Source of the DNA: an uncultured Fibrobacteraceae bacterium
GTDB taxonomy: Bacteria; Krumholzibacteriota; Krumholzibacteriia; LZORAL124-64-63
Assembly: GCA_964549735.1 (NCBI GenBank)
Contig: CAZJWO010000002.1
Coordinates: forward strand, 27,358 to 91,357
Direction of reading: 5' to 3'
DNA: 64,000 nucleotides
Both the position numbers and the translations under genes were made by a program. The notes under the pieces are model-generated. The model made no database searches, was not told the origin of the DNA, and saw only the letters and a list, made by a program, of their open reading frames with translations. Below, piece after piece: positions 1,659 through 45,773 of this stretch (position 1 is its first letter; every line of letters starts with the position of its first letter).

Positions 1659-3428
1659 ATGACCCGACCCCGCCCGCCATCCGGACGCGCGGATCGCCGC
1701 GCGGCGGACAACGGCATCGCGACCGCGACCGGACTGGATGCGGCGGCAGGCGCCGCTGCGGATCCCCGTCGCGGCGAGTTCCTGCGGTCCGAGCACCGGT
1801 TCCGCGCCTACTACGAGGCCAACAGCGACGCGATCATGACCCTGGACGGCCGCGGCTTCCTGGACTGCAACGCGGCGACCCTCCGGCTCTTCGGGTGCGC
1901 CAACCGTGCCGAGTTCCTGGCGAAACACCCCGGCGAACTCTCGCCGCCGCTACAGCCGTGCGGCACCGATTCCATCACGTTGGCCGATGAACGCATCGCG
2001 ACCGCGCTGAAGCGCGGCTATCTGCGGTTCGAATGGGTGCACCGGCGCATCGATTCGGGCGAGCCTTTCCCCGCCGAGGTGCTGCTGCAGCCTCTCGAAC
2101 TGGACGGGCAGGCGCTGTTGCAGGCGGTCGTGCGCGACATCACGGACCGCAAACGCATCGAGCTGGCCCTGCGCGAGACCAACCGCCGCCTCGAGCAGGC
2201 CACGGCGGCGGCGAGCCGCATGGCGATCCAGGCCGAGCTGGCGAACAAGGCCAAGAGCGAGTTCCTGGCGAACATGAGCCACGAGATCCGCACGCCGATG
2301 AACGGCATCATCGGCATGGCCGAGTATCTGGGGAGCACCGACCTGGACGTCGAGCAGCGCCAGTGCGTGCACGTGCTGCGCTCGAGCGGCGACGCGCTGC
2401 TCGGCATCATCAACGACATCCTGGACTTCTCGAAGATCGAGGCCAATAAACTGTCCCTGGAGGACCAGGAGTTCGCGCCGCGCACGGTCCTGGCCGAAGC
2501 CGTGGAACTGATCGCGCTGCGAGCCCGCGAGAAGGACCTGGACATCGCCTGTCAGATCGATCCGCGCCTGCCCGCCGCTCTGCGCGGCGACCCGGGCAGG
2601 CTGCGCCAGATCCTGCTGAACCTCGGCAGCAACGCCGTGAAGTTCACCCTGAAGGGAGTCGTGACGCTGACGGTCGAACTGGTCGAGGATCGCCACGACG
2701 ACGTCACGCTGCGCTTCGCGGTCACCGACACCGGCATCGGCATCGCCGCCGCGGATCAGGCCACCCTGTTCCACCCCTTCACGCAGGTCGATGGTTCGAC
2801 GACCCGCCGCTATGGCGGTACCGGGTTGGGTCTGGCCATCTGCCGGCAACTGGTCGAGCTGATGGGTGGCGAGATCGGCCTGACCAGCCAGCCGGATCAC
2901 GGCTCCACGTTCTGGTTCACGGTCGTCCTCGGCAAGGCGGACCCCGCCGCAGGCGTCGCCGCGGGCGAGGCGGCGAACGACGCCGCGGCCCGCGAGCCGA
3001 CGCGGCCGCCGGCGGGCGACGACGGCGACCGCGCGCCCCGCATCCTGCTCGCCGAGGACAACCCGACGAACCAGTTCGTGGCCCGCAAGATCCTGGCGCA
3101 GCTCGGCTACAGCGTCGACACGGTCGAGACCGGGAGCGAGGCCGTCGCGGCCTTGCGCAGCACCGCCTACGACCTCGTGCTCATGGACTGCCAGATGCCG
3201 GAGATGGACGGCTTCGAAGCGACCCGCCTGATCCGCGACCCCCGATCCGGAGCCCTGGACCCCCGGGTGCCGATCGTCGCGATGACCGCCCACGCGATGA
3301 TCGGAGATCGCGAGCGCTGCCTGGCCGCGGGTATGGACGATTACCTGAGCAAGCCGGTCCAGAGCCGCAAGCTCTACGAGATCCTGTCGCGCTGGCTCGG
3401 CTTGACCTCTCGCCCCGCGGGACGCTAG
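1659..3428 (+). CDS. Hybrid sensor histidine kinase with PAS, HisKA, HATPase_c and a C-terminal receiver domain
   Basis: H-box [18 protein letters not shown]; G2 box [22 protein letters not shown]; receiver domain [18 protein letters not shown]...[17 protein letters not shown] with the conserved Asp; AAGGAG Shine-Dalgarno ~10 nt upstream of ATG 1659. Confidence 0.9.
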
Positions 3429-3450
3429 CCCGCCCGCGCCCGCGGTCCGT

Positions 3451-4113
3451 TCAGGCGAGCCAGGCGACGGCCCGCGCCGGCGCACCGTCGGCCGCGGCGA
3501 TCTTCAGCGGCAGGCAGCAGAACACCAGGCGCCGTCCGACGAGCGGCCGCAGCCCCGTCAGGTTCTCCACGATCACCAGGCCGCGCCGCAACAGGATGCG
3601 GTGGATCGGAAGGCGCGGTGCGCCGGCGGCGTCGATCGAGACGGCGTCGATGCCGATGCCGCGCAGGCCGCCGTCTGCGAGCCAGCGCGCGGCCGCCGGC
3701 GTCAAGACGGGGTACCCTTCGTAGTACGAGGACTCGCTCCAGCGGTCCGACCAGTCCGTGCACAGCAGCACGAAATCCAGGCTGGCGAGATCAGGGAGCT
3801 GAGCCTGCAATTCCGGCAACTCGATCCGACCGTCCGCGGACAGCGCGGCATCGGCCACTGCCGCGCGGCCGATCAGGCGATCGGCCGGGTAGGCGTCGAG
3901 GGTCGCGCCGTCCGGCAGCATGTGCGCCGGCGTGTCGAGATGCGTTCCGGTGTGCGTCAGCAGGCTCACGCGCTGTTCGGCGAAGCCGTGTTCGGCGATC
4001 GTGAACGGACGGCTGAACTCCGGCGGCGCGGTGCCCGGATAATGCGGCATGCCGGGAGCGATCGTGTGCGTGAGATCGACGATCTCCGGCGTGGTCCAGC
4101 TCGGTTCGGTCAT
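3451..4113 (-). CDS. Cyclase-family protein (kynurenine formamidase-like, PF04199-type)
   Basis: HTGTHLDTPAH motif typical of the putative-cyclase / KynB fold. The start is placed at MTEPSW (internal Met of track ORF 3451..4155) and the ORF is colinear with the upstream SET-domain gene. Confidence 0.65.
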   Translation of the reverse strand: MTEPSWTTPEIVDLTHTIAPGMPHYPGTAPPEFSRPFTIAEHGFAEQRVSLLTHTGTHLDTPAHMLPDGATLDAYPADRLIGRAAVADAALSADGRIELPELQAQLPDLASLDFVLLCTDWSDRWSESSYYEGYPVLTPAAARWLADGGLRGIGIDAVSIDAAGAPRLPIHRILLRRGLVIVENLTGLRPLVGRRLVFCCLPLKIAAADGAPARAVAWLA

Positions 4114-4161
4114 GTCGCCCTGCCATTTCCGGCGCACCGCGCGGTCGGTGCGCATCTCGTG

Positions 4162-4518
4162 TCAGCGGACGTCGAACCAGGGCGCGCACTCGTACCGGTG
4201 CACGATCTCCTGTCCGGCGGCGATGTCGCGCAGCGCGACGAAATAGATCAGACCCTGCTCCTTGTCGCGCTGCGTGTACGCGTTGGGTTCATCGGCGTGA
4301 TTGTAGATCAGGCTGAAGCCCAGCGGTATCGCGCAGCGGTGCTCGCCCCAGTCGAAGTAGTAGTCCCGCAGGGCCGTGTGATTTAGCAGCTCGTATTGAT
4401 CGTCGTCCAGAACGATCACCGGCGCCTGCTCGATGATCTCCCCGGCGTGGAAGTCGCGCCGGGCGAAGACGCCGCGTCCCTTGCCCACGCTCGCGCGGAT
4501 CTCGATGTCCTGATCCAT
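4162..4518 (-). CDS. SET-domain protein (putative protein-lysine methyltransferase), 118 aa
   Basis: SET signature NHADEPNA (cf. NHSCxPN) and a downstream ...GQEIVHRYE... post-SET-like region; a compact minimal SET domain. Confidence 0.65.
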   Translation of the reverse strand: MDQDIEIRASVGKGRGVFARRDFHAGEIIEQAPVIVLDDDQYELLNHTALRDYYFDWGEHRCAIPLGFSLIYNHADEPNAYTQRDKEQGLIYFVALRDIAAGQEIVHRYECAPWFDVR

Positions 4519-4600
4519 GGCCTACACACTCCCTCAGCGCTTGAAGAAGCACGTGTGCCGTCGGTGCTGAACGGAGAGAACGGCTTCGGCCGACCGGCCG

Positions 4601-4867
4601 TCAGGCGGCGGCCTTCTTGCGGCGGATGAATCCGACCAGGTTGTTGACCGAGTCGAGGTTCTCGGGCATGAGATCCTCGTCCTGGATCTGCAGGCCGTGG
4701 TCGCCCTCCAGATACGCGACGAGCTCCATGACGCCGACCGAGTCGATGATCCCGGTGTCCAGCAACGACTGGTCGTCGCTCGTCAGGGGGTTTTCGTCGC
4801 CGAACAGGAAGTTCTCCACGATGTAGCTGCGAATCTTGTCCCGCAATTCCATGGCGGCGTTCTCCAA
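4601..4867 (-). CDS. Acyl carrier protein (phosphopantetheine-binding)
   Basis: LDTGIIDSVGVMELVAYLE with the Ser of the DSx phosphopantetheine attachment site; 80-88 aa; acidic. The true start may be the second Met (MELRDKI, at 4852). Confidence 0.8.
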   Translation of the reverse strand: MENAAMELRDKIRSYIVENFLFGDENPLTSDDQSLLDTGIIDSVGVMELVAYLEGDHGLQIQDEDLMPENLDSVNNLVGFIRRKKAAA

Positions 4868-4907
4868 GGGTCGAGTGTCCTGTCAACAGCGGGTTAAGAT
4901 CGCTCCT

Positions 4908-6983
4908 CTAGCCCGCCGGCGCCACACGCCAGACCAACTCCCCGGGGGCCAGGGCCGAGCTGTCCAGGCGGCTCGACAGCTCGGGGCCGAATTGCTGCAC
5001 CAGCAGCTGGGCGCTGAGCACGCCCACGAAAGCCATGTTCTCGCGGGCGGCCGTCAGCCGGCCGGCCTCCCATTTACGCTGCAAGCTGGCGACCCTCTCC
5101 GGCCGCCAGAAGCCCGCCGCGGCCAGCGCGGACGCGCTGAGTCGCTCGCGCGCCAGTTCGCGCCCGGCGCCGGCGACGAAGCTGGCGCTGTCCGGCGCCC
5201 GGTAGGGCTGCTTGTCGCGCGCGACGATCGGCGGCGGCAGCAGGTCGGCCACGGCCTGCTTCAGCAACGATTTCTCGTTGAGCGACTGCAGCTTGGCCGA
5301 GGCCGGCACGGTGGCGGCGAAGGCCCCCACGTCGGGATCGAGGAACGGGAAGCGGCCCTCCACCGAGTGCCCCATGAGCATCCGGTCGCCCTGGGAGTTG
5401 AGCAGGTAGCCCGACAGGAAGGTGGTCATCTCCAGGTACTGCGCGCGGGCCACGGGCCCCCAGTCGGCGAACGCGGCCGGCAGGGCGGCGGCCAGGCGCT
5501 GCTCCGGCTCGCCGCGCCGCAACGCCGCCGCCGCCTCGTCGGCGAGCAGGGAGGTCATCATGCCGGTGTTGGCCCAGCGCGGCCGGTGGCTGAAGAACGG
5601 CTCGTCGGGGCGGTCCAGACCCTGGCCGTAGAAGCGCGCCAGGAATTGCGGCGGCGACAGCTCCAGATAGGGGTACAGCCGCGTCAGCAGCAACGCGCGC
5701 CGCTCGTCCGCGGGACGGCGGCTCCAGAACCGGCGGACCTTGGCCTCGCGGAAGATGTTGTAGCCGACCCAGACCTCGTCGGCGCCCTCGCCGGTCAGCA
5801 CGACCTTGTACTGCTCGCCGCGCACCAGGCTCGACAACGCGTAGAGCGGCGCCGGCGCCGTGCGCAGGATCGGCGTCTCGGCATGCCAGATGACCGCGGG
5901 GAAATCCCGCGCGATGTCGGCGGCGCCGACGGTGATCAGGCGGTGGTCGGTGCCCAGATGGGCGACCATCAGCCGCTGCCAGGCCGATTCGTCGAAGGCG
6001 CTGTCCTCGAAACCCACGGAGAACGTCTTCAGACGCCGGTCGGTGTAGCGGTGGATGATCGCCGCGATGGCCGAAGAATCGAGACCGCCGGAGAGGTAGG
6101 CGCCCACCGGCACGTCGGCGCGCAGGCGCAGCACCGCGGCCTGGACCAGGCGCTCGCGCAGTTCGTCGGCCAGCCGGCGCTGCTCCTGCCGGTCCACGAA
6201 GCGGCGGTCCTCGTCCGCCGGCAGGAACGTCGGATGCCAGAAGCGGCGCAGGCGCAGGCGCGACGGCCAACCCGGCGCGGCCATCATGGACGCCGCGGAC
6301 GCCCCCGCGGCCGGCTGCCCGCTCGCCGCCCGCTCCTCGCCAGCGTCGAGAACCAGCGTCGCGGTGTGGCCCGCCGGCAGCTGCACGACGCCCCGGAACA
6401 CGGTGCGCGGCGGCACGGTCACCCAGTAGGTGAAGACCTCGGCGACCGCCTCGGGGTCGACCGCGGGCTGGAAGCCAGGCCAGGCCGCCAGCGCCTTGAC
6501 CTCCGAGGCGAAGAGCAGGTGGCCGGCGTGCTCGGCGACGTAGAGCGGCCGCACGCCGTAGCGGTCGCGGGCCAGGAAGAGGGTGCGGCGCGCCGAGTCC
6601 CAGATCGCGATGGCGAACTGGCCGTTGAATCGGTCGACGCAGCGGTCGCCCCATTGCTCGTAGGCGTGGACGATGACTTCGGTGTCCGAACGCGTGCGCA
6701 GGACGTGGCCCAGGGCCTCCAACTCGTGCGCCAGCTCGATGTAGTTGAAGATCTCGCCATTGAAGACGATCCAGCGGCTGGCGTCCTCGCTGGTCAGCGG
6801 CTGCTGGCCGGTCACCAGGTCGATGATGCTCAGGCGCGTATGGCCCAGGAAGGCGCGGTCGTCCCGCCAGGCTCCGAACTCGTCCGGGCCGCGGTGGCGC
6901 AAGGCGCCGACCATGCGCTCCGGCACGCCGTCGCGCAAACGCAGGGGTCCGTCGAGGGACACGACGCCACAGATGCCGCACAC
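4908..6983 (-). CDS. Asparagine synthetase (glutamine-hydrolysing) family amidotransferase, AsnB-like
   Basis: N-terminal MCGICGVV (class-II glutamine amidotransferase nucleophile Cys2); SGGLDSS PP-loop motif; 691 aa. Stop is 5 nt from the upstream ligase stop, so the two are co-transcribed. Confidence 0.9.
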   Translation of the reverse strand: MCGICGVVSLDGPLRLRDGVPERMVGALRHRGPDEFGAWRDDRAFLGHTRLSIIDLVTGQQPLTSEDASRWIVFNGEIFNYIELAHELEALGHVLRTRSDTEVIVHAYEQWGDRCVDRFNGQFAIAIWDSARRTLFLARDRYGVRPLYVAEHAGHLLFASEVKALAAWPGFQPAVDPEAVAEVFTYWVTVPPRTVFRGVVQLPAGHTATLVLDAGEERAASGQPAAGASAASMMAAPGWPSRLRLRRFWHPTFLPADEDRRFVDRQEQRRLADELRERLVQAAVLRLRADVPVGAYLSGGLDSSAIAAIIHRYTDRRLKTFSVGFEDSAFDESAWQRLMVAHLGTDHRLITVGAADIARDFPAVIWHAETPILRTAPAPLYALSSLVRGEQYKVVLTGEGADEVWVGYNIFREAKVRRFWSRRPADERRALLLTRLYPYLELSPPQFLARFYGQGLDRPDEPFFSHRPRWANTGMMTSLLADEAAAALRRGEPEQRLAAALPAAFADWGPVARAQYLEMTTFLSGYLLNSQGDRMLMGHSVEGRFPFLDPDVGAFAATVPASAKLQSLNEKSLLKQAVADLLPPPIVARDKQPYRAPDSASFVAGAGRELARERLSASALAAAGFWRPERVASLQRKWEAGRLTAARENMAFVGVLSAQLLVQQFGPELSSRLDSSALAPGELVWRVAPAG

Positions 6984-6987
6984 GGGG

Positions 6988-8610
6988 TCAGGTTCCTCTC
7001 GCCTGTTGCTTGAGCGCGAGGTAATCGATCTTGCCGCGGCTGGTGTGGGGCAACGCGCCGACCAAGGTCACGCGACCGGGCACCAGGTACGGCTCGAGTC
7101 GCTCGCGGCAGGCGCGGATGATCGCCGGCGGCGTCAGGCTGCTGCCCTCGCGCACGACGACGTAGGCGCAGACCATCTCGCCGAGGATCGGATCGGGCGC
7201 GCCGACGACGGCGGCCTCGACCACGTCCGGCAGACCATAGAGCGCGTTCTCGACCTCGCGCGGACTGACCTTCTCGCCCCGCGACTTGATGATGTCGTCG
7301 CTGCGTCCCTTGAAGTAGAGGAAGCCTTCGGCGTCCTGGGTGAACCAGTCTCCCGAGCGCAGCATGCGCTCGCCGGGCAAGGGCCCGGGCCGCAGCATCT
7401 GCGCGGTCTGTTCCGGCCGATTCCAGTAGCCCATCATGACATGCGGACCCCGCACGTGCAGGATCCCCATCTCGCCGGGCGCGACCGGCCGATTCTCGTC
7501 GTCGAGCAGCAGGACCTCGGTGCCGGGTATCGCCTTGCCCACCGACGCCGGTCGCTGCAGGACCAGCTCCGGCTCGAGGTAGCAGACCCGCTTGCATTCG
7601 GTCAGGCCGTACATCTTGTAGATGAGGGCGTTGGGGAAGATCTCGCGCAGGGCCGGCAGCATCTCGGCCGGCAGAGCGGCCGCGGTGTTCGTCACGCGCT
7701 GCACGCCGGGGAAGCAGAGGCTGCCGCGGCGGTGCAGATCGATCAGGGTGGCGAACATCGTCGGCACCCCGGGAAAGACCGTCACCTGCTCCTGGGCCAG
7801 CCGCTTGAGGATCGGCGCCGTGAACACGAAGTCCTTCTCCAGCAGGACCGTCGCGCCCACGTGCACGGCCATCAGGATCTGGTACAGGCCGTAGTCGAAG
7901 GCCAGCGGCAGGGCGCAGAGGATCCGGTGCGCGCCGTCGAGGCGCAGGTACTCGACGAGGCTGCCGCACGTGAAGACCATCGCCTGGTGCGTCATCATGA
8001 CGCCCTTCGGCTCTCCCGTGCTGCCGGAGGTATAGATCAACGCGGCGAGGTCCACCCCGATGGCCGGGCACGGCGCGTCGTCGGCGACCGACTCGGCCAG
8101 CGCGGCGGCCAGATCGTGCTCTGGCGGCGGGGCGGCGGGCGTCGCCTCGTGCGCCTCGTGCGCCTCGGCAGCGGCGGCCGCGTCGGCTGCGGCGGGATCG
8201 CCCCGGCTGACCGTCAGCACGGCTTCGAGCGACGGCAGGTCGCCGGCCGCGGAACGATACGTCGCCGCCAACCGGCGCTCGGAGATCAGGAAGCGCGCGC
8301 CGCAATCGTTCAACACGAAGCGCACCTTGTCCCGTTTGGTCTGCGGGTGGATGACCGCGAAGACCCCGCCCGCCAGGGACGTGCCGTAGATGGCGACCGC
8401 GCTCTCGACCGTGTTCTCCAGCAGGATCAGCACGCGGTCGCCGCGGCGCAGGCCCCGCCGCCGCAGCCAGGCGGCCAGCCGCCGGGCGGCGTCCCACAGC
8501 TGCCCATACGTGAGGGTCTGCGCGCCATCGCCGACGGCGGGATGAGCGGGACGCGCTGCGGCCTGGCGCGCCAGGGCATCGGGCAGCAGTCGCAGCTCCC
8601 CTGGTTGCAT
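6988..8610 (-). CDS. AMP-dependent synthetase/ligase (acyl-CoA or acyl-ACP synthetase family)
   Basis: YTSGSTGEPKGV AMP-binding motif; GEMGILHVRGPHVMMGYW; YFKGRSDDIIKSRGEKV. Start chosen at MQPGELRLL (8610), preceded by AAAGGTG. The long track ORF 6988..10152 extends upstream through a non-coding-looking stretch. Confidence 0.85.
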   Translation of the reverse strand: MQPGELRLLPDALARQAAARPAHPAVGDGAQTLTYGQLWDAARRLAAWLRRRGLRRGDRVLILLENTVESAVAIYGTSLAGGVFAVIHPQTKRDKVRFVLNDCGARFLISERRLAATYRSAAGDLPSLEAVLTVSRGDPAAADAAAAAEAHEAHEATPAAPPPEHDLAAALAESVADDAPCPAIGVDLAALIYTSGSTGEPKGVMMTHQAMVFTCGSLVEYLRLDGAHRILCALPLAFDYGLYQILMAVHVGATVLLEKDFVFTAPILKRLAQEQVTVFPGVPTMFATLIDLHRRGSLCFPGVQRVTNTAAALPAEMLPALREIFPNALIYKMYGLTECKRVCYLEPELVLQRPASVGKAIPGTEVLLLDDENRPVAPGEMGILHVRGPHVMMGYWNRPEQTAQMLRPGPLPGERMLRSGDWFTQDAEGFLYFKGRSDDIIKSRGEKVSPREVENALYGLPDVVEAAVVGAPDPILGEMVCAYVVVREGSSLTPPAIIRACRERLEPYLVPGRVTLVGALPHTSRGKIDYLALKQQARGT

Positions 8611-8700
8611 GCGCACGCACCTTTCGTCGGACGCCGGGCCGGTCAGCCGGCCGGCAAACGCCGGGAACCCTTCCATAATGAAGCACTTATGTCTTTCGAC

Positions 8701-8715
8701 CCCTTGCGGCAAGGG
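8701..8715. promoter_or_regulatory. Perfect 7-1-7 palindrome CCCTTGC-C-GCAAGGG in the divergent ligase/methyltransferase intergenic region
   Basis: Read directly from the sequence; lies ~90 nt upstream of the ligase start and ~200 nt upstream of the HemK-like gene. Confidence 0.3.
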
Positions 8716-8913
8716 TTGAGTATCATTAAGCGGGAAACCAACCTGACGCAACTGCCGGCCGCGGCGCCGCGAAATGCGGCGCACGCCAAGGCCGACCGAG
8801 ACGCCCGCGGGCCGCTGTGCTAAGCTGCCGCCAGCGCCGGCCCTCCGCCCGGATCGTCCCCATCGCTGCGGGTCGACGATGTCGTGCAACCACCCTCGCC
8901 GAAGGATTCGCAC

Positions 8914-9780
8914 ATGTTCCCTGGATTCCAACGCGTTTACGACGCCTTCCGGCAAGCGGAGATCGCCGAACCGCTCCAGGAGACGCTGCGCCTGTTCGAC
9001 GTGATCTCCAGCGGCGCCATCCGCGCCATGGATCCCGAAGCTCCCGCGGCGATCGAGCTGGAGCGTCTGGCGGCCGGACGCCAGGCCGGCACGCCGTTGG
9101 AGTACCTGCTCGGCAAGGCGGCGTTCATGGGCTTGCAGCTCACGTGCTCGCCGGACGCCCTGATCCCCCGCGCCGAGACGGAACTGCTGGCGCGCACCGC
9201 GCTGGAGCTGATCCGCGCCCGCCAGGGCGCCCAGGCGCGCCTGACGGTCGTCGACATGGGGACCGGCAGCGGCAACATCGCCGTCGCGCTGGCGGTCAAC
9301 ACGCGCGACGTCGACGTCCTGGCCAGCGACGTCAGTCCGCAGGCGGTCGACCTGGCGCGGCGGCAGGTGGCCGCCTTCGCGCTGCAGGACAGGGTGACCT
9401 TGTTCTGCGGCGACCTCTACGAACCGCTGGTCGCGGCCGGATGGGCCGGCAAGATCGACGTCCTGGTCTGCAACCCGCCCTATCTGCCGACGAGCACGCT
9501 GGCCAAGCTGGCCCGCGAGATCATCGACCACGAACCGACGGTCGCGCTCGATGCCGGGCCCTACGGCATCAACATCTACCGCCGACTGATCACCGGCGCG
9601 GGCGACATGCTCAAGCCCGATGGCGTCCTGGTCTTCGAGATCGGCGCCGGCCAGGAGAAGCTGGTGACGCGATTGCTGGAAGGCGTCGGCATCTACCCGA
9701 CGATCGATTACCACCGCGACGCCGAGGGACAGATCCGCGTCGTCAGCGCCGATCGGCGCCGGATCGCCGGCGATGCCTGA
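8914..9780 (+). CDS. HemK/PrmC-family protein (glutamine-N5) methyltransferase-like SAM-dependent methyltransferase
   Basis: VDMGTGSGNIAVALA SAM-binding motif I and NPPY catalytic motif (VLVCNPPYLP). GAAGGA RBS 8 nt upstream of ATG 8914. Confidence 0.7.
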   Translation: MFPGFQRVYDAFRQAEIAEPLQETLRLFDVISSGAIRAMDPEAPAAIELERLAAGRQAGTPLEYLLGKAAFMGLQLTCSPDALIPRAETELLARTALELIRARQGAQARLTVVDMGTGSGNIAVALAVNTRDVDVLASDVSPQAVDLARRQVAAFALQDRVTLFCGDLYEPLVAAGWAGKIDVLVCNPPYLPTSTLAKLAREIIDHEPTVALDAGPYGINIYRRLITGAGDMLKPDGVLVFEIGAGQEKLVTRLLEGVGIYPTIDYHRDAEGQIRVVSADRRRIAGDA

Positions 9781-10195
9781 ACCCGGCGCGAACGAACGCG
9801 AGGCGATCGCCCGCGCCCTGGCGGCATGGTACGAGGCCTGGCGCGCGCACGACCTCGAGAGCGTGCTGTCCCTGCTGCACGACGACGTGCGGTTCGAGCA
9901 CTGGGACGGCAGCGTGGTGGTCGGCAAGTCGGCCCTGCGCCGGGCGTGGTCCGGCTGGTTCGCCGGCCGCGACTTCCACTTCGCCGAGGAGGAGACGTTC
10001 GTCGACGCCGGTGCATGCAAGGCGCTGTTCCGCTGGCGACTGACCTGGCCGGCGCCAGGGCCCGATCGCCGCGGCGAGTTCGAAGTCCGCCGCGGCGTCG
10101 ACGTGCTGCATTTCCTGGACGCTCGGATCATCCGCAAACTCACGTACACCAAGACGACCGTGACCGCGGCCGGTCGCGGGGCTCAGCCGGCCTGA
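9773..10195 (+). CDS. NTF2-like / SnoaL-like small protein
   Basis: 140 aa; the pattern EAIARALAAWYEAWRAHDLESVLSLLHDDVRFEHW is typical of the SnoaL/DUF4440 fold. Overlaps the upstream gene by 8 nt. Confidence 0.45.
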   Translation: MPEPGANEREAIARALAAWYEAWRAHDLESVLSLLHDDVRFEHWDGSVVVGKSALRRAWSGWFAGRDFHFAEEETFVDAGACKALFRWRLTWPAPGPDRRGEFEVRRGVDVLHFLDARIIRKLTYTKTTVTAAGRGAQPA

Positions 10196-10917
10196 GCCGC
10201 GTCCGCGCCGCCCGCCAGCGCGAGCGCGCGCGGGAACAGCACGTTGTTCTCCTTGTGGATGTGGCGGTGCAGATCCCTCTCGAGCTGTTCCAACTCCTCG
10301 TAGTAGGCGCGGAAGGTGGCGCACGCATCGGCGGGCGACGCGTAACCCGAGCTCAGGTCGCGCAGTCTGGCGAGCGCGGCGCCGGCCTGTTCGTGCTCGT
10401 GTTCCATCACGCGGATCGGATTGGACAGGTGGCCGCAGTGGAACTCCGCGGCCCCCCGCGTCCGCTCGAGCATGCGGATCGCCGGGAACAGCACCTCCTC
10501 TTCCTTGCCGAGGTGCATCTCGATCTCGGCGATCAATCCCCGCAGCACGTCGCGCATCTCGACGAGTTGGGGATGCTTGGCCCCGTGCACGTCGTGGACC
10601 TTCGCCGCCAGCGCCGCCAGGCGCGGCAACGCCTCGCGCAGGTAGGCGTGATGCGTCTGTTCGAGGTGGTCGACCAGGTCGGTCAACGTGAGCCGACGGA
10701 CATCGGGCTCGGCGGCGGCGGCCGCCGCCGCGATCGGCGGTCGCGCCAGCATCCGCGCCACGGTCGCCGGGTCCAGACCGGCCTCGCGGCAGGCGTCGGC
10801 GAGCGCGCGTCCGCCGCCGCAGCAGAAGTCCAGGCCGAGCGCCTCGAGAACCGCGGCGCGAGCCGGATTCTCCGCGACCAGATCGCCCAACGTACGGTCC
10901 AGGGCCAGCGGATTCAT
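10183..10917 (-). CDS. Iron-sulfur cluster repair di-iron protein (RIC / YtfE / ScdA family)
   Basis: GLDFCCGG N-terminal motif, then two hemerythrin-like HxxxE/HHxxEE regions (HHAYLRE, HLGKEEEVLFP, MEHEHEQAG, HIHKENNVLFP). Start at MNPLAL (10917) with an AGGAGG RBS. Confidence 0.8.
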   Translation of the reverse strand: MNPLALDRTLGDLVAENPARAAVLEALGLDFCCGGGRALADACREAGLDPATVARMLARPPIAAAAAAAEPDVRRLTLTDLVDHLEQTHHAYLREALPRLAALAAKVHDVHGAKHPQLVEMRDVLRGLIAEIEMHLGKEEEVLFPAIRMLERTRGAAEFHCGHLSNPIRVMEHEHEQAGAALARLRDLSSGYASPADACATFRAYYEELEQLERDLHRHIHKENNVLFPRALALAGGADAAQAG

Positions 10918-11071
10918 GGCAGCCTCCTGATTTCGAGCATCCTTCGCCAGCGGGCGCACAGCCGCCGCCGGACTTGCGGCCACGCCCGCCGTGATGTGCG
11001 CCGCGGTGCCGGCGGCGCGAACGCGGGCGAACGATTAACCAGGGTAATTTGATCCTATATTAGCCCGCGCA

Positions 11072-11091
11072 ATTGTGGATGTCAAGGTCCA
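11072..11091 (-). promoter_or_regulatory. Operator-like motif TGGACCTTGACATCCACAAT, ~155 nt upstream of the ric start, minus orientation
   Basis: One of three copies of TGGACC-N6-TCYACAAT found in this island; see the finding at 10183-14188. Confidence 0.5.
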
Positions 11092-11124
11092 TTATATCGC
11101 AGGACCGAGACACGAGGCGGCGGG

Positions 11125-11847
11125 TCATTCCGGCCAGCCGACCGTCTGCGCGAGAAGGATGCGGTGTTCGGCCGGCAGGCCGAGCGCCGCGGACAGGCGG
11201 TCGCGATCCACCATGCCACGCACGACGGTCGCCAATCCCGCCGACGCGCAGTAGAGGTAGATGTTCTCGCTGATGAAGCCGGCGTGCGAGCCCGCCCAGA
11301 TGAGCGCGCTGTCGTCCACCTCGGCCGGCAGGCGCTCGACCAGGACCAGGTTCACGGGAGCGTCCTCGACGAAATCCTGCCGGCCGGTCAAGGCGCGCAG
11401 GTCGCCCGCGGCGATCGGCTGGAGCGTGTGCCCGTGCGCGTCGTAGAGATACGCTCCTGCGGCCAGCACGACGTACAGATCGGTGGTCTGGCGGTTGCGG
11501 GCCGACGGAGCCGTGCGATGGCCGGTTTCCGGACGGCTCACGCCCCACGCCGCCCAGAGCAGGGTCGAGAGCACCGGCAACGGCAACGGATCGGGCGCGA
11601 ACGCGCGCTGGGACTTGCGTGCCGCGAGCGCCGACAGCAGCGGCATGCCGCCGGTCGTTTCCGGAGCCGGCAGGACGATCGGCTGCAGGTCTGCCGCGAG
11701 ATCGGTCGCGACGGAGGTCGCGCCGCCAGCCGCTTCCGAGGCCGCCGGCACGACGGTGGCGAGCATGAGGAGCGCCGGCGTCAGGGCGGCGAGGCGTCCC
11801 AGGCGCAAGGCGGCGGCGTGGCGACGAGCGTCGAAGTTCCGGTCCAT
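11125..11847 (-). CDS. Nitroreductase-family protein (SagB-type / NAD(P)H nitroreductase fold) with N-terminal signal peptide or Tat-like leader
   Basis: Start at MDRNFDARRHAAALRLGRLAALTPALLMLATVVPAASEA (GGAGGA RBS). The body LWAAWGVSRP...TAPSARNRQTTDLYVV...GFISENIYLYCASAGLATVVRGMVD matches the nitroreductase fold. The N-terminal ~150 aa of track ORF 11125..12294 are discarded as non-coding. Confidence 0.65.
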   Translation of the reverse strand: MDRNFDARRHAAALRLGRLAALTPALLMLATVVPAASEAAGGATSVATDLAADLQPIVLPAPETTGGMPLLSALAARKSQRAFAPDPLPLPVLSTLLWAAWGVSRPETGHRTAPSARNRQTTDLYVVLAAGAYLYDAHGHTLQPIAAGDLRALTGRQDFVEDAPVNLVLVERLPAEVDDSALIWAGSHAGFISENIYLYCASAGLATVVRGMVDRDRLSAALGLPAEHRILLAQTVGWPE

Positions 11848-11954
11848 TGCTTCCTCCGGGGCTGGTGCTGCGGGCGAGCGTACGCTGTCGAGGGCGCCGG
11901 CGTCCAGATGCAGATCGCGATCGCTGTTCGGCTTGGTGAACACGCCTCTTCGTG

Positions 11955-11976
11955 CTATTGTAGATATCCGGGTCCA
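11955..11976 (-). promoter_or_regulatory. Operator-like motif TGGACCCGGATATCTACAATAG in the Rrf2 / nitroreductase divergent region, minus orientation
   Basis: Second copy of TGGACC-N6-TCYACAAT, ~110 nt upstream of the nitroreductase start and ~30 nt upstream of the Rrf2 start. Confidence 0.5.
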
Positions 11977-12004
11977 CATCTTTCTTCGCACGAGCGGAGG
12001 AACC

Positions 12005-12466
12005 ATGCTCTCGCAAACCGCCGAATACGCCCTGCGCGCCGTGGTCTGGCTGGCCGCGCAGAATGCCCAGACGACAACAGCCGGCGCCGGCAGTTCCGCG
12101 CGCACCACGGCGCAGATCGCCGCCGGCACCAAGGTGCCCGCCGGATATCTCGCCAAGGTGATGCAGCGGCTCGGTCGCGCCAGCCTGGTCAAGGCGCAGC
12201 GCGGACTCGGCGGCGGATTCACGCTGGCGCGCGACGCGGCGGCGATCACCGCCCTGGATGTCGTCGAGGCCGTCGAGCCGATCGCGCGCATCATCGACTG
12301 TCCGCTCGGCGTCGCCGACCACTCCGGCTGCCTCTGCCCCCTGCACAGCCGCCTCGATCAACTGCTGGAGACCGCGTCCAGGACGCTCGGCTCGACGACG
12401 ATCGCCGCGCTCGTCGCCGAGCCGGCGACCGGCCGGCCCTTCTGCGGCATCCCGCCGGAGGATTGA
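12005..12466 (+). CDS. Rrf2-family transcriptional regulator (NsrR/IscR-like)
   Basis: N-terminal MLSQTAEYALRAVVWLA winged-helix signature and a three-Cys cluster IIDCPLGVADHSGCLCPLH for Fe-S ligation. GGAGGA RBS upstream of ATG 12005. Confidence 0.8.
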   Translation: MLSQTAEYALRAVVWLAAQNAQTTTAGAGSSARTTAQIAAGTKVPAGYLAKVMQRLGRASLVKAQRGLGGGFTLARDAAAITALDVVEAVEPIARIIDCPLGVADHSGCLCPLHSRLDQLLETASRTLGSTTIAALVAEPATGRPFCGIPPED

Positions 12467-12473
12467 CCCCGGA

Positions 12474-13673
12474 TCACGCGTAGTACAGCAATCGCCGCTC
12501 GCCCTCCAGTTGCCGGATGTGGGTGACGTCCTGCGTCATCTCCAGGCAGCCCCGATAGACGCCGTCCTGTCGCACCGCGAAGTAACGGATGTGCACGAAG
12601 CGCCCCTGGAAGGTGATCCAGAACTCGGCCTGCGACTGGGTGCCGGCCCGGAAATCGGCGAGGATGCGCTCGACGGTGTCGACGCTCTTGGGCGGATGGC
12701 AGTGCTGCACCTTGCGGCCGAGGATCACGGCGGATCGCGTGAAGACGCGGTCCGGGCCCTCGCTGAAGAAGCGCACGCGATCGTCCTCGTCGACGAAGGT
12801 CAGGTCGACCGGCATGGTCGAGAACAGCAGCCGCAGCTGCTCGTGCGTCAACACGCCGGTGCCGAGGTCGATGCCGGCCGTCGCCGTCATCGCCACCGGT
12901 TCGGGGCCGGCGGCCGGTTGCGGCGGCTGCCAGGCGGCGCGCGGCATGACGAGGCACCAGCCGTATTGCGGACTATCGGCGTGGATCCGGCCCCAATCCT
13001 CCTCCGTGAAGAGGCTCTGGCACATCGGGACCAGGATCGTCTCTTCGCGCTCGACCATCTTGACCAGCAGGTCGACCGCTTCGCGTCCCGCATTCTGGAC
13101 GTCCGACCACGCCGACTGCGGCGCCAGCAGGCGATCGAAGCCGGCCAGCGCCTGGCGCACCTCGTCGTCCTTGCCCCACATGACCTTCGACGGCCCGTCG
13201 ACGCCGTGCCGCTCGAGGATCGAGAACCAGGCGTTCTCCTTGCGCTGGTAATGCTTCTCGACGTCCATCAGCGCGTTCAGGCCGCGGCGCAGGGCGAGCA
13301 GGCGCTGCTCGTCCGGCCAGGCGACCTCGCCGGAGAGCAGGTCCGCCAGCTCGCGCGCGTGGCTCTTCAGGGCGGCGTTCTCCTGCTGCAGGACGTCGAC
13401 CGGATGACCGGGCGGCACCAGCTGCACGACCGGCGCCACCAGATCGGCCACGACCTCGCGGTGCAGGTCGCACATGCCCATGATCTCGGCGACCGGCATG
13501 CCCTGGGCGATGAGCTCCTGCTCCATCGCGGCGATCTCGCCGGCGTCGCACTGCCCGACGAGTTCCCGCAGGCGGTCCTTGACCTCCGCCGCCGGGCGGC
13601 CGGCATGCAGATCGCGGATGATCGCGGCGAGCGTCGCGATGCGTCGCTGCTGGTTGTTGATGAGTTCGCTCAC
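12474..13673 (-). CDS. DUF438-family protein with hemerythrin-like cation-binding and C-terminal PAS-like region
   Basis: Apparent GTG start at 13673 (VSELINNQQRR), overlapping the DUF1858 stop by 4 nt (GTGA). HxxxE-type motifs (CDLHREV, MDVEKHYQRKENAWF). The C-terminal region LTFVDEDDRVRFFS...RKVQHCHPPKSV resembles the PAS_10 domain usually fused to DUF438. The upstream portion of track ORF 12474..14078 is in a different gene's space. Confidence 0.55.
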   Translation of the reverse strand: MSELINNQQRRIATLAAIIRDLHAGRPAAEVKDRLRELVGQCDAGEIAAMEQELIAQGMPVAEIMGMCDLHREVVADLVAPVVQLVPPGHPVDVLQQENAALKSHARELADLLSGEVAWPDEQRLLALRRGLNALMDVEKHYQRKENAWFSILERHGVDGPSKVMWGKDDEVRQALAGFDRLLAPQSAWSDVQNAGREAVDLLVKMVEREETILVPMCQSLFTEEDWGRIHADSPQYGWCLVMPRAAWQPPQPAAGPEPVAMTATAGIDLGTGVLTHEQLRLLFSTMPVDLTFVDEDDRVRFFSEGPDRVFTRSAVILGRKVQHCHPPKSVDTVERILADFRAGTQSQAEFWITFQGRFVHIRYFAVRQDGVYRGCLEMTQDVTHIRQLEGERRLLYYA

Positions 13674-13963
13674 GGATTGGCCTCCTTGGGGGCAAGGCGC
13701 GGCGCGGCACCCGCCGCCGCGCCGGTCGCCGTCGCGCCGCCGGCTTCCCGCTCGCCCGCGGCGGCGTGCAGGGCGGCCAGGACCTCGCCGAGCGCGCGGT
13801 CGTTGCGCTCGCAGGCCTGGCGCAGCGTGACCAGCCGGGACATGACCTGGCGGGTCACCGGATTGGCCAGCGGCTTGAAGCCCTGCGCCACCAGGACTTC
13901 GAGCATCCACGGATCGCGTCGCAGGAGTTCCGCCACGGTCAGGTCGGGATCGAAACGAGACAC
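13670..13963 (-). CDS. DUF1858-domain protein
   Basis: 97 aa; DLTVAELLRRDPWMLEVLVAQGFKPLANP...TLRQAC matches the DUF1858 fold that usually partners DUF438 in NO-responsive loci. Confidence 0.55.
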   Translation of the reverse strand: MSRFDPDLTVAELLRRDPWMLEVLVAQGFKPLANPVTRQVMSRLVTLRQACERNDRALGEVLAALHAAAGEREAGGATATGAAAGAAPRLAPKEANP

Positions 13964-14012
13964 GGCGCCACCTTCCTGCCGGCCGGCGCGATCGCCCGGA
14001 TTGCGCCGGCGG

Positions 14013-14033
14013 TTTCAATAACTGGACCTTGTT
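14013..14033 (+). promoter_or_regulatory. Operator-like motif TGGACCTTGTTGTCCACAATA in the DUF1858 / ldh divergent region, plus orientation
   Basis: Third and best copy; contains a perfect inverted repeat TGGAC-N6-GTCCA. Lies ~155 nt upstream of ldh and 50 nt upstream of the DUF1858 start. Confidence 0.5.
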
Positions 14034-14188
14034 GTCCACAATATAGGCGCATGCGACGCGCAGCGCAAAGGACGGCACACCGGGCGGGGCGCGGCCGGTC
14101 CGGTTGCCGCCTCCGGCGCGTTGCCCTTGCTTGTCGCAGCAGGCTGCGCGGAGGACGCGCCGCCCCCTCGAGCAGGAGGTGGACGTAG

Positions 14189-15136
14189 ATGAAGATCGGC
14201 ATCGTCGGCACCGGCATGGTCGGCTCCTCGGCCGCCTACGCGATGGTCATGAACGGCATCGGCCGCGAGATCGTCATGATCGACAAGGACCGTGCGCGCG
14301 CCGAGGCCGAAGCGGCCGACCTCTCGCACGCCGTGCCCTTCGCCCACCCGCTGCGCATCCACGCCGGCGACTACGCCGACCTCGCCGGCGCCCGCGCGGT
14401 CGTCATCGCGGCCGGCGTCGGCCGCAAACCGGACGAGTCGCGGCTGCAGCTCCTCGAGCGCAACGCCGGCGTCTTCGCCGACGTGGTGCCGCGCATCCTC
14501 GAGCACGCGCCGCAAGCGATCCTCGTGATCGCGACCAACCCCGTCGACGTCATGACGCACATGGCGGCGCGGTATGCCGAAGCGTTCGCCGTGCCGCACG
14601 GCCGCGTCATCGGCTCGGGCACGACCCTGGACACGGCCCGCTTCCGCGCGCTCCTGGGCCGCGAGCTCGGCGTCGACCCCGCGCACGTGCACGCCTACGT
14701 GATCGGCGAACACGGCGACAGCGAGGTGCTCACGTGGTCGGCCGCGACCATCGCGGGCGTGCCGCTCGCGGACTTCTGCCGGCTGCACGGGATCGACCTC
14801 GACGACGAGAAGAAGGCCCAGATCGACCACGCCGTGCGCAAGGCGGCGCCGCCGATCATCGCCGGCAAGGGCGCGACCTATTACGGCATCGGCGCGGCCC
14901 TGGCCCGCATCGTCGACGTCATCCTGCTGGATCAGCGCGCCATCCTGACGATCTGCACCATGAGCCACGGCGTGCTCGGCCACGACGACGTGACCGTCTC
15001 GTTCCCGCACCTGCTGGGCGGTTCGGGCATGCTCTTGCCGATCCCGCCGCAGGTCGACGAGGGCGAGACGAAGGCGCTGGCGGCCAGCGTCGCCGTCGTG
15101 CGCGAAGCGACGTCCGCGCTCGAGAAGCAGCGCTAG
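14189..15136 (+). CDS. ldh: L-lactate dehydrogenase (LDH/MDH superfamily)
   Basis: [13 protein letters not shown] Rossmann motif, [22 protein letters not shown], catalytic-loop [10 protein letters not shown]. 315 aa. Confidence 0.85.
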
Positions 15137-24684: not shown

Positions 24685-27600
24685 CTATCTGACGAGCACC
24701 ATCTTGCCGACGAGCGTCTGCCCGGCGGCGCGCAGCTCGTGGAAGTACACCCCGGACGCCGCCGCCCTGCCGCGGTCGTCCGTTCCGTCCCACGGGATCT
24801 CGTGCAGGCCGGCCGCGAGCCGGCCCGCGACCAGGGTCCGCACCAGCTCGCCGCGCAGGTTGAACACCTTCAGGCCGACCTCGCCGCTCTGCGGCAGGGT
24901 CAGGCGGATCGTGGTCGACGGGTTGAAGGGGTTGGGGAAATTCGTCGCCGCGAGCACGGCCTCGGGCGCCACGCCGGTCGGGATCGAGCCGCCGGCCTGG
25001 CCGAAGCTCGCCAGGATGTCCTGCAGGACGAGCGCGCGGGTCGCGACCGGGCCGTTGCCACCCCCGCCCGCTTGCTGATGAATGAACATGAAGTCATACG
25101 GCAAGTAGACGATCGTCGCGTCATCATCGGCGCGGTAGTTGCGCACCGCCGCCGCGTACGGATAGGGATCGTCGGTGCCGCCAGGCCCGGTGAAGCCTGC
25201 CAACCGCTCGGCAGTGCCCCAGGGCGCGACGGCGTCGAACGTATTGAGCCGCCGGCAGCCGCCGTAGACGATCCAGGCGTGGCTGTCGTCGAGCACGCCG
25301 TTGCCCGCGAGCGGCCGCACGAGCGGCGACGACTGATTGTCGATCAACGGCCGCAGGTTCGACGCCAGGTACGTCACGCCGAGGTAGTCTTGGCGGAACA
25401 CGAGGGCGGCGCCGTGGGTCTGGTGCAGCTCATAGGCGAGGTTGTCCCCGGTCAGGAGCGCCTTCTTGCTCCCCAGGGCGAACCAGGCCGTCAAGAGGCC
25501 GATGTCGTCGGCAGGGTTCGCGCCGTCGCCGACGCCGAGCATCCGGCCGGTTCCAGTGCTCGCTTCGCGGCGATCGCCGAACGTGACGAGCAAGACCTCA
25601 TAGCCGGCCAGTTGGGGCGCCGCGGCGCGGCCGCCGAGCGAATTGCCCATCTGTTCGCGCGCGGCCAAGGTGCGGTAGAGATCGACATCGACACCGGGAC
25701 GGTAGCCTAGCTGTGCGAGAGCATACAGCCACTCGTCCTGGCCACCGTCGGCCGGGAAGTGCTGAGACCAGGGCTTGTCCGAATTGTCCCACCACAGGAC
25801 TCCGGGCTGATCGCCCGGCTCGGCTGAACGCAACGTGGGCAGACCGCGCACGGTGAAGTTCCGGTCGAAACCGAAGAGCCGGTCGAAATCGCCGAAGTGT
25901 TCCAGATCCGCCGGCAGGCGGGTGGTGCCGACGCTGGAAGAATCATCGCCGAATATGTCCTGCGCCTCGATGTAGTAGTGCAGGATGTCGCCGGGGAAGA
26001 AGAAGTGCGCGTCCGGCAGATCGAAGTTCCAGCGATTCGGCACCAGCGAACCCTGGGCATTGTACGTTGGCAGGCCCTCCACATGGCCGCTGACGACCCC
26101 GCCAGCGAACGTCACGCCTTGCAGCACCGGATCGCTCAAGTCGCGCACCTCGTCGAAGAGCGGGTTCGTCTTCAGCGCGAAATGGAGCCGCGGCGGTCCG
26201 GCGAGCTGGAAACCCGCCCTGATCACCGCGATATCGACAGCGATCGAGTCGCCGGGCGTATTGCCGCCGTGCGACGGCGGCGAGATGTTGCTCGCCATGT
26301 CGAGCCGGATCGAGTTGGCGCCGAGTTCGACGAAGTCGAGCGTGCCGCTCGCGGGGAAGCTGTCCTGGAACAGATGGATGGCGCGCGCCGAAATGGCCGG
26401 TCCCCGGAACGGAAAGCCCAGCACCGCCACGTTGTCGAAATACGGGGCGGGAGTGCTGTCGGCGCCGATCAGCGAGGGACTCTGTCTTGCGCTGAGGGCG
26501 ACCTGCACATGGGTCCGGCCCGGCGCCAGGTAGGGGGTGATGTCGAAACGCTGGCGCTTGTACGTGGGTTCGGAGGAGAAGTAGAGCAAGCCGGTACTCA
26601 CCCAGGGAGCCGACGCGAGATCGGCCGGATCGCCGGTGTCGACCGACCTGACGGACCAGGTGTCGAAGGTCGGTGTCGTCGAGCCGCTGAAATCGATGAC
26701 GGTGTGTTGGTAGACATCGTAGGCGAGGATCAGGCCGTCGACGCTCTCGGGCACGACGAGCGGAGGGCTGATCACGCCGTTGTACAGGCGATCGTACCCG
26801 CCGAGCAGGCCGCCGGAATGATTGACGACGTACCCGCCTGGACCGTAGGTCCACGTCCAGCCGGTGGTGCCACCGGTGCCGGGCACCACGACGCCGTCGT
26901 CGATGAACGCCACCTGCGGGGAGAAATTAGCCACGCAGGGATCGAGATCCTGCAACGCGATGTACAGCGCCGCGAAATCGCCGACGCCCGGCAGATCGAC
27001 CACCCAATTGCCGAACGTCGAATTCTCGCCCGGTTGGTCGGGCTCGATCGCCTCGAAATCCTCGGTCTCGATCAACTCGCCGTCGACCCAGACGACGATG
27101 TCGTCGAGCTGCAGAGCCCCGCGCAAGGTCGGCGCCATGCCGTCCTCGTCGGAAAAGATGCCGTCCGAACGGAACCGGACCCGGAGTTCGATCCGATCGC
27201 CGGACGGGCCGCCGTAACTTGCGGGCGCATACACGAACGTCTCGTCGAACTGCGCCGTGCCCGACCCGTCGAACTCGGCAAGCACCACCCAGGCGCCGCC
27301 CTGCCGGTACTCCAGATAGCTGAAATCGTACCCGGGTTCGCTGTCATAGCAGATCGCCAGGCGCCAGCGGACCGTGCTGGCCGTGAGCGGATCGGCGACC
27401 GTATGCGCGAAGACCACCGCCTGGCGCCAGTCGTTGCCGTAACCCGGACCGGGCCACGGCGACCCGGCCGGAAAACGGCGGCCGAGCCATAGCGACCGCT
27501 GACCGCCGCATACCAGCGCGGGGTCGTCCGTCACCGACCAGTGATGGGCGGCATTGGCCGTGAAATCGACGCCAGTCCAGCCGTGCCAGGCCGGCGTTCC

Positions 27601-27804: not shown

Positions 27805-27837
27805 GGCGAACCTTTCGCCTGGCGAGATTCCGCCCGG

Positions 27838-27893
27838 TAGAAAAACAGGAGTTCCGATTCCGCAGCCACCGACACCTTAATAGACGGAACTCC
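27838..27893 (-). terminator. Stem-loop GGAGTTCCG...CGGAACTCC followed by UGUUUUUCU on the minus-strand transcript, downstream of the S8 peptidase gene. A second small UUCG-tetraloop hairpin (AGGATTA-ttcg-TAATCC) lies just 5' of it.
   Basis: 9-bp perfect stem with a U-tract on the coding (minus) strand. It sits only ~35 nt upstream of the next gene start, so it could alternatively be a 5'-UTR element. Confidence 0.4.
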
Positions 27894-45766: not shown

Positions 45767-45773
45767 GGCGCCG

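Follow-up and report, generated by a model that had tools for sequence, protein, structure and literature searches.

A conserved ligase, AsnB-homolog and acyl carrier protein module in an uncultured Fibrobacteraceae bacterium, a candidate system for carrier-dependent amidation

Bacterial gene sets that encode a ligase, an amidotransferase homologous to asparagine synthetase B (AsnB) and an acyl carrier protein (ACP) have long been catalogued as 'exosortase-associated' genes or 'hypothetical equivalogs'. A close described counterpart is the accessory set of the XrtA/PEP-CTERM system, in which the same three families (the ligase TIGR03098, the amidotransferase TIGR03108 and an ACP) occur side by side; TIGR03099 is the pyridoxal phosphate (PLP)-dependent decarboxylase encoded adjacent to the TIGR03098 ligase. 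The present analysis concerns such a trio in a 64,000-nucleotide (nt) stretch of DNA from an uncultured Fibrobacteraceae bacterium (GenBank assembly GCA_964549735.1, contig CAZJWO010000002.1, positions 27,358 to 91,357 of the forward strand), hereafter referred to as the window, where the three genes share a minus-strand cassette with genes for a SET-domain protein and a PF04199-type 'cyclase' and are adjoined by divergent genes for a HemK-type methyltransferase and a SnoaL-like protein. The trio is found here to be distributed far more widely than exopolysaccharide (EPS) loci, and its features suggest, at somewhat less than an even chance, a carrier-protein-dependent amidation module for an aspartate-like residue that would subsequently be N-methylated.

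Two other groups of enzymes are useful for comparison. VinN of the vicenistatin system loads (2S,3S)-3-methylaspartate, and weakly aspartate, onto the stand-alone ACP VinL (PMC11284099); its recognition residues are D230 (for the amino group), F231, S299 and K330/R331, the last two being held in a beta13-beta14 loop shortened by one residue (PMC11253843). In the case of AsnH, the alpha-carboxyl of D-Asp is amidated once the beta-carboxyl has been joined to the peptidoglycan precursor, and not before (PMC4155827). AsnH, the AsnB/LtsA enzyme that acts on meso-diaminopimelate, OxyD and the glutarimide amidotransferases are all glutamine-dependent AsnB homologs that amidate the free carboxylate of a substrate held by another of its carboxyls, and the window enzyme would resemble them in its chemistry; its substrate is proposed to be a thioester on a dedicated ACP rather than a lipid-linked peptidoglycan precursor or an intermediate of a polyketide synthase (PKS). 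The PKS cluster that would accompany an OxyD- or glutarimide-type enzyme is found neither in the window nor among the recurrent neighbours of the 84 loci compared.

The initial annotation of the window had likened the trio to the exosortase accessory genes. This holds at the level of families, both in the NCBIfam matches of the ligase and the AsnB homolog and in the presence of more distant members of the AsnB subfamily in a minority of loci with EPS genes, some of which pass XrtA/PEP-CTERM models (TIGR03013, 421.8 against a cut-off of 393 bits; TIGR03027, 216.9 against 180; TIGR03015, 378.5 against 324.5), but neither the scores nor the surroundings carry it further. The ligase has TIGR03098 as its best NCBIfam match at 429.6 bits, well below the curated cut-off of 592.35, and the AsnB homolog has TIGR03108 as its next-best match behind the generic AsnB model at 435.7 bits against 816.9; a proteobacterial module homolog (L097) likewise stays below the latter cut-off with 459.6 bits. 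A scan of essentially all credible open reading frames (ORFs) of the window for exosortase, glycosyltransferase, PKS and nonribosomal peptide synthetase (NRPS) domains found none, in agreement with what had been noted initially, nor was any PEP-CTERM protein, EPS gene or PLP decarboxylase found among them. Neither the cassette nor the rest of the window has the TIGR03099 decarboxylase, and clustering of the neighbours that recur in the 84 loci did not bring one up. The window differs from the XrtA set also in possessing the methyltransferase and SnoaL-like genes, and the secreted proteins of the source organism carry a FlgD_ig-type tail.

The search with the AsnB homolog returned at least 8000 matches to a family of proteins of about 670 amino acids (aa), the best homologs outside the genus being 58-70% identical among the matches listed. 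A scan of the genome collection with an alignment of the subfamily yielded 80 loci of 43-66% identity from Acidobacteriota, Actinomycetota, Chloroflexota, Planctomycetota, Nitrospirota, Myxococcota, several proteobacterial classes, Ignavibacteriota, Zixibacteria, Cyanobacteria, Elusimicrobiota and others. Neighbourhoods were counted within 10 kb at 86 AsnB-homolog loci, which were compared with the window proteins by tblastn, and 84 loci were used for an unbiased clustering of ORFs and a search for gene fusions; L-numbers are the labels of the homologous loci compared with the window, L001 being a metagenome contig that matches the window itself. Of the 86 loci, 71 carry an ACP gene and 64 a ligase gene, and more than 15 phyla are represented; cultivable carriers include Longilinea arvoryzae (L070) and Nocardioides sp. 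Root122 (L033). The three genes form a conserved module and are not adjacent housekeeping genes; the idea that they would find their best matches in housekeeping families and show no conserved co-occurrence is contradicted for the trio by these neighbourhoods. In Krumholzibacteria and related metagenome-assembled genomes, the gene order AsnB-ACP-ligase lies inside a conserved syntenic block, and the trio looks like a core syntenic gene set of these lineages. The fourth frequent partner, revealed by the unbiased clustering, is a NadE-like PP-loop ATPase, which is present in 54 of the 86 loci, usually adjoins the AsnB gene and passes the 'NAD(+) synthase' model NF002048 (475 against 313 bits). 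The protein is about 330 aa long (L057:12004-13008, plus strand, and 53 other loci among L027-L097). No NadE-like gene is found in the clade of Fibrobacteres-Chlorobi-Bacteroidetes (FCB) loci or in the whole window.

Other genes observed around the module in the compared loci include a SLOG/LDcluster4 (PF18306) gene, which is a conserved upstream neighbour of the canonical AsnB-ACP-ligase set in 12 loci of the Krumholzibacteria-related clade (for example L015:6860-7360, L013:6779-7276, L017:7223-7723 and L100:8252-8764) and is absent from the window. Directly downstream of the canonical trio in three lineages are genes for small secreted proteins of about 190-210 aa with a signal peptide and a shared C-terminal motif, S[WF][DG]x[LV]K[SAT]LYR-stop (L015:11488-12117 and 12440-13060; L017:12607-13197; L019, approximately 12660-13250; two in L026). 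The window has none of these proteins, whose common ending may be a clade-specific C-terminal sorting tag. A candidate WbuX/PseA-like N-acetyl-sugar amidotransferase of the PP-loop type, with motifs read by eye, is encoded at L030:12355-13380 and in five other loci; if correct, the assignment would add a further amidating enzyme to EPS-type loci.

The ligase contains the Pfam domains AMP-binding (303.7 bits) and AMP-binding_C. Its best match in the PDB is VinN (3wvn, E-value 7.9e-83), followed by NRPS adenylation domains (LgrA) and beta-aminoacyl-ACP synthetases (HitB and IdnL1), with CoA ligases scoring well behind. By its sequence it is closest to stand-alone enzymes of the amino-acid adenylating type and not to fatty-acyl ligases, which refines the initial annotation as an AMP-dependent ligase; its VinN-type amino-acid code had not been noticed initially. 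In phmmer and MAFFT alignments, D230, F231, S299, K330 and R331 of VinN correspond to D, Y, T, K and R, and the loop is of equal length; the window ligase has each element of the code, namely the Asp, a bulky residue at 231, Ser/Thr at 299 and Lys-Arg in a short loop, as well as a stand-alone ACP, encoded two genes downstream, as its possible partner. It is predicted to be an acidic-amino-acid:ACP ligase. The likeness to VinN/VinL thus comprises a stand-alone adenylating enzyme paired with a stand-alone ACP, the short loop, and the side chains by which VinN holds its substrate, 3-methylaspartate or Asp, at the amino group and at the additional carboxylate. The macrolactam context of VinN, that is, the PLP decarboxylase VinO, a second, protecting ligase, an acyltransferase and a PKS, is missing from the window; moreover, the substrate here would be amidated and not decarboxylated, and the module is far wider in its taxa and has a setting more like that of core metabolism.

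The ligases of the module split into two classes. At the five VinN positions, the window-type class (n=37) has D in 31, Y in all 37, T in 31, K in 32 and R in all 37. The other class (n=30) has S or C in place of the Asp, followed by Ala and by Ser/Thr, keeps the Arg and has a loop that is one residue longer; it takes in the ligases of every canonical FCB-clade locus, and its best PDB matches are feruloyl/fatty-acyl-, oxalate- and malonyl-CoA ligases. The module therefore has two classes of loading enzyme, one of which bears the code of an aspartate-type amino-acid:ACP ligase and travels with an amide or amine N-methyltransferase.

The AsnB homolog, about 130 aa longer than Escherichia coli AsnB, contains GATase_7 (157 bits) and Asn_synthase (303.5 bits) domains and passes the generic model TIGR01536 (490.2 bits against a cut-off of 267.1), with the nucleophilic Cys in MCGICG and the PP-loop LSGGLDSS; it fails the model of AsnB proper (NF006949, 309 against 499 bits). 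Cys2, R50, N75, E77, D100, SGGLDSS and GEGADE are invariant across 20 homologs and align with E. coli AsnB, the Glu of GEGADE aligning with that of SGEGSDE (the E348 equivalent). Judged by this set of motifs the enzyme is catalytically complete. Public annotations name such homologs asparagine synthase.

The ACP has a PP-binding domain (PF00550, 29.6 bits against a cut-off of 20.8) and fails every AcpP-type NCBIfam model. The Ser that carries the phosphopantetheine is kept by all 71 module ACPs compared, and the window ACP is 64-76% identical to the ACPs beside FCB-clade AsnB homologs. AsnB and ACP genes remain paired even without a ligase nearby (L017), and this pairing, the tightest and most conserved of the module, together with the unusually high ACP identity, points to a direct cooperation of the two proteins. 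The best NCBIfam match of the ACP is the ornithine-lipid ACP for OlsHI, at 49.8 bits against a cut-off of 130, which was judged to be a generic resemblance between stand-alone ACPs.

Two recurring partners, which were not noticed initially, lie just outside the cassette. The methyltransferase, which contains the NPPY motif (VCNPPYLP) and has Thermotoga maritima HemK as its best PDB match, passes TIGR03534 marginally (205 against 199.1 bits; hemK_fam, 192). Homologs of 40-51% identity occur in or beside the module in L038, L044, L048, L058, L060, L073, L093 and L097, that is, in Acidobacteria, Chloroflexota, Nitrospirota and Beta- and Gammaproteobacteria, with the gene standing between those of the ligase and the ACP in L048 and L093, and the congener L098 keeps both the methyltransferase (79% identity) and the SnoaL-like gene. 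At each of the nine loci the methyltransferase is accompanied by a ligase of the window type (9 of the 37 loci with this class, 0 of the 30 with the other; Fisher p = 0.003). Characterised members of the HemK family methylate the carboxamide nitrogen of glutamine. The window protein shares the NPPY motif and the TIGR03534 match with the HemK/PrmC N5-glutamine methyltransferases but is encoded in or next to an amidation module and not beside a release-factor gene; the marginal score and the recurrence in nine module loci suggest a specialised PrmC paralog. The SnoaL-like protein matches SnoaL_2, SnoaL_3 and DUF4440, and its homolog in the Chloroflexota locus L058 (55% identity) is encoded between the methyltransferase and the ACP in a single-strand order of methyltransferase, SnoaL-like, ACP, ligase, AsnB and NadE-like genes. 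In view of these partners the functional unit is more likely to span 4601-10195 than 3451-8610, the limits assigned to it initially.

In a neighbour-joining tree of 87 AsnB homologs, the window genus nests within the FCB/Krumholzibacteria clade. The window belongs to a Krumholzibacteria metagenome-assembled genome, and its close homologs bear the labels Candidatus Krumholzibacteria or Krumholzibacteriia. All other members of this clade that have a ligase possess the CoA-ligase-like class, and none has the methyltransferase or the NadE-like gene. The window ligase is only 31-35% identical to FCB-clade ligases and up to 52% identical to those of Proteobacteria and Chloroflexota, whereas the ACP shows 35-54% identity outside the clade, as against the higher values within it. 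From these opposing affinities, the genus joins a local AsnB-ACP pair with a ligase of foreign type, the methyltransferase and the SnoaL-like gene, and the mosaic has come to lie at a new site in the genome, where SET and cyclase adjoin it. The window version differs from the known kind of module in lying outside EPS loci, in lacking NadE and in combining a VinN-type ligase with an N-methyltransferase.

The gene content, the catalytic motifs, the conservation of the trio, the association of the methyltransferase with the module and the retention of the VinN residues are observed; from them, the substrate, the order of the steps, the target of methylation and the fate of the product are inferred as follows. 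The ligase would activate aspartate or a close analogue, bound as a 'beta-amino acid', and the side-chain carboxyl of this residue would be thioesterified to the ACP. The AsnB homolog would then hydrolyse glutamine and adenylate and amidate the free (alpha) carboxylate, giving an isoasparaginyl-type thioester, whose new amide or amine would be N-methylated by the HemK-type enzyme, and the SnoaL-like protein may aid cyclisation or release. For the amidation step, AsnH, with its action on a D-Asp that is already attached, offers a chemical precedent. The broader claim, that the trio is a hitherto undescribed carrier-dependent route in more than 15 phyla to isoasparaginyl units, N-methylated where the HemK-like enzyme is present and possibly released as an aminosuccinimide-type imide or transferred to the envelope or EPS, is put forward as a speculative extension that is unlikely on present evidence. 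If true, it would also assign a biochemical function for the first time to the long-unexplained exosortase-A accessory set of ligase, ACP and amidotransferase, and in the window genus the PF04199 amidohydrolase and the SET protein might process the isoasparaginyl product further. In either form, the outcome is a concrete hypothesis, testable in vitro, for a large uncharacterised family.

Several observations weigh against the proposed amidation pathway. The NadE-like ATPase, usual in the modules of other phyla, is missing here and its role is unexplained. The AsnB and ACP of the FCB clade normally pair with ligases of the CoA-ligase-like class, which lack the amino-binding Asp, suggesting that AsnB tracks the specificity of the ligase loosely. 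The loci L037, L042 and L063 have AsnB homologs with no ACP or ligase nearby, L037 sitting among genes that pass the XrtA/PEP-CTERM EPS models, so that the amidotransferase need not act on an ACP-bound group. Among the 84 loci there is no AsnB-ACP or ACP-ligase fusion, the module loci have no conserved off-loading enzyme, and literature searches gave no paper on the gene combination. With product release, the function of NadE, the two ligase classes and the ACP-less members unexplained, confidence in the model stays below one half. A preprint on a 'terminal amidation domain', which was also considered, deals with an unrelated NAD-binding domain and has no bearing on the module.

The main rival explanation is that the AsnB homolog and the ligase/ACP pair modify a surface polymer independently, the former amidating a carboxylate, such as that of a uronic acid, in a glycan or envelope polymer, and the latter supplying an acyl or aminoacyl group in a Dlt-like manner, with the EPS genes located elsewhere in the genome. 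Decoration of a surface polysaccharide is also what has been assumed for the exosortase-A accessory genes. We regard this rival as unlikely, though it is not without weight: the NCBIfam matches of ligase and AsnB homolog point to the XrtA-associated families, loci elsewhere pass TIGR03013, TIGR03027 and TIGR03015, Wzz/Wza, glycosyltransferases and acetyltransferases are present in 5-16 of the 84 loci, and some AsnB homologs of EPS-type loci have neither ACP nor ligase. Against it, the 64 kb window and the surroundings of the FCB-clade loci yielded no EPS, exosortase or glycosyltransferase gene, the XrtA-family scores remain under their curated cut-offs, and the closeness of the AsnB-ACP pairing and the ACP identity within the clade are more readily understood if the two proteins act together. 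AsnB homologs also amidate carrier- or CoA-bound malonate in polyketide pathways, and a further proposal is that a PKS or NRPS with genes at another site receives from the module an amide-bearing starter unit of the malonamyl type, much as in the pathways of OxyD and the glutarimide amidotransferases. The canonical FCB-clade ligase, which resembles oxalate- and malonyl-CoA ligases, would suit such a role, which is nevertheless very improbable given that no PKS or NRPS occurs in the window or among the recurrent neighbours of the 84 loci and that the module is core-like and syntenic across whole clades, unlike a sporadic secondary-metabolite cluster.

Another possibility is that all five genes of the cassette serve one pathway: an ACP-tethered acyl group would be amidated, the SET protein would then methylate it, and the PF04199 enzyme would bring about its cyclisation or hydrolysis. 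In favour of this reading, the genes all run in one direction with little space between them, two congeners (84-85% AsnB identity) retain a seven-gene order that takes in SET and cyclase while their flanks differ, and PF04199 enzymes hydrolyse amides and lactams, which would suit an amide product. It is nonetheless improbable, as SET and cyclase are missing from all module loci outside the genus, SET orthologs of 76%, 71% and 66% identity stand alone elsewhere, the ACP-SET spacer varies, and known SET enzymes act on protein lysines. Least credible of all is a chance adjacency of a housekeeping asparagine synthetase B, a FadD-type acyl-CoA ligase and an ACP: the passing of TIGR01536 and the public naming of the AsnB homolog as asparagine synthase are outweighed by the occurrence of the three genes together in more than 15 phyla, by the failure of the AsnB-proper model and all AcpP models, and by a ligase that is nearest to amino-acid adenylating enzymes.

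The SET and PF04199 genes, eye-catching as they are, prove to be genus-level neighbours that lie outside the conserved system. The SET protein matches PF00856 (55.5 against 22.4 bits) and no NCBIfam family, and its best PDB matches are the Set7-like 5h6z and the viral vSET 1n3j. The cyclase-gene product is assigned to the PF04199 'cyclase' family of metal-dependent amidohydrolases (112.5 bits; metal motif HTGTHLDTPAH); its best PDB matches are the metal-dependent hydrolase 1r61, kynurenine formamidase and isatin hydrolase, and it stays below the cut-off of the arylformamidase model TIGR03035 (90.6 against 223 bits). The order AsnB-ACP-SET-cyclase is kept in L011 (SET 86% identical) and in the congeners L098 and L099 (AsnB 85%), the ACP-SET spacer measuring 82 nt in the window and 195 nt in congeners. 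By tblastn against the 86 loci, SET and cyclase genes stand beside no AsnB homolog outside the window genus. Of the five-gene operon proposed initially, the recurrence of ligase, AsnB homolog and ACP is upheld, but SET and cyclase travel with the trio in congeners alone. Solitary SET orthologs in unrelated contexts (L012, 76%; L004, 71%; L005, 66% identity) have as neighbours DUF1003/DUF386, an epimerase and AhpC, and secreted FlgD_ig proteins. L005, with the SET gene, and L023, with AsnB-ACP, are different contigs of what is, by name, apparently the same dolphin-oral lineage. With these orthologs solitary and no SET gene beside an AsnB homolog outside the genus, SET is here a genus-level juxtaposition; both genes may be co-transcribed with the trio in the window. 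A LOG/SLOG-type gene adjoins a distant SET homolog in L008, and another precedes the canonical trio; a link with SET was considered on this ground and discarded, as the two LOG-like proteins do not match each other.

The coordinates of the genes are given in Table 1. At a GC content of about 70%, long spurious ORFs are common in the window; the five ORFs of 3451-8610 show the codon-position GC of real genes (0.88-0.93 at third positions and 0.31-0.54 at second positions), all score above Pfam gathering thresholds, and are genuine genes. The five co-directional minus-strand genes with short gaps described initially are confirmed, with measured gaps of 4, 55, 82 and 6 nt; if the cyclase starts at Met15, the last gap becomes 48 nt and the protein 220 aa, as in a congener. 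The cassette is bordered by the convergent gene of a hybrid histidine kinase (1659-3428) and by the divergent methyltransferase gene, and the region between the latter and the ligase gene is presumed to be a shared control region for both. A scan of 3200-10400 for sigma-70 promoters and intrinsic terminators found nothing, a result that is uninformative for the host phylum.

Table 1. Positions of the module genes and their immediate neighbours in the window
Feature	Coordinates	Strand	Remarks
Ligase gene	6988-8610	minus	public gene call starts at 8676 instead
AsnB-like gene	4908-6983	minus	GTG start, MCGICG; 691 aa
ACP gene	4601-4852	minus	83 aa
SET-domain gene	4162-4518	minus	118 aa
PF04199 cyclase-family gene	3451-4155	minus	alternative start Met15 at 4113
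HemK/PrmC-family N-methyltransferase gene	8914-9780	plus	divergent from ligase gene
SnoaL/NTF2-like gene	9773-10195	plus	overlaps end of methyltransferase gene by 8 nt
Intergenic region, ligase/methyltransferase	8611-8913	no strand	locally AT-richer stretch inside

A PADLOC scan of the cassette proteins and the NadE-like partner for a relation to defence systems gave weak methyltransferase matches only, and the idea was dropped. Beside the module, on the minus strand at 10183-14246, are genes for a RIC/ScdA di-iron repair protein, a nitroreductase, an Rrf2 regulator (called at L001:2053-2514) and proteins with DUF438-hemerythrin-PAS and DUF1858 domains, a cluster with the appearance of a unit against nitrosative/oxidative stress; the congener locus L098 has no RIC gene. 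A FlgD_ig domain (PF13860) forms the C-terminal end of several large secreted proteins, one of them a subtilase (window 24685-33714 and 38965-39909; also in L001 and L098), in line with the different sorting tail noted initially, and these endings fit a C-terminal sorting domain like that of the type IX secretion system in the source organism. On the plus strand at 43134-44447, the window also encodes a full-length serpin (PF00079, 381.6 bits), a type of protein that few bacteria possess. A minus-strand cluster at 44849-49577, downstream of the gene for a PAS-sigma54 activator, encodes two ATPases of the CbiA/ParA type that contain 4Fe-4S domains, along with two proteins of the Nitro_FeMo-Co family (PF02579). 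A minus-strand gene at 54427-57183, flanked by the genes of two large hybrid histidine kinases, encodes a 918-aa protein that combines FGE-sulfatase (PF03781) and Lcl C-terminal (PF07603) domains.

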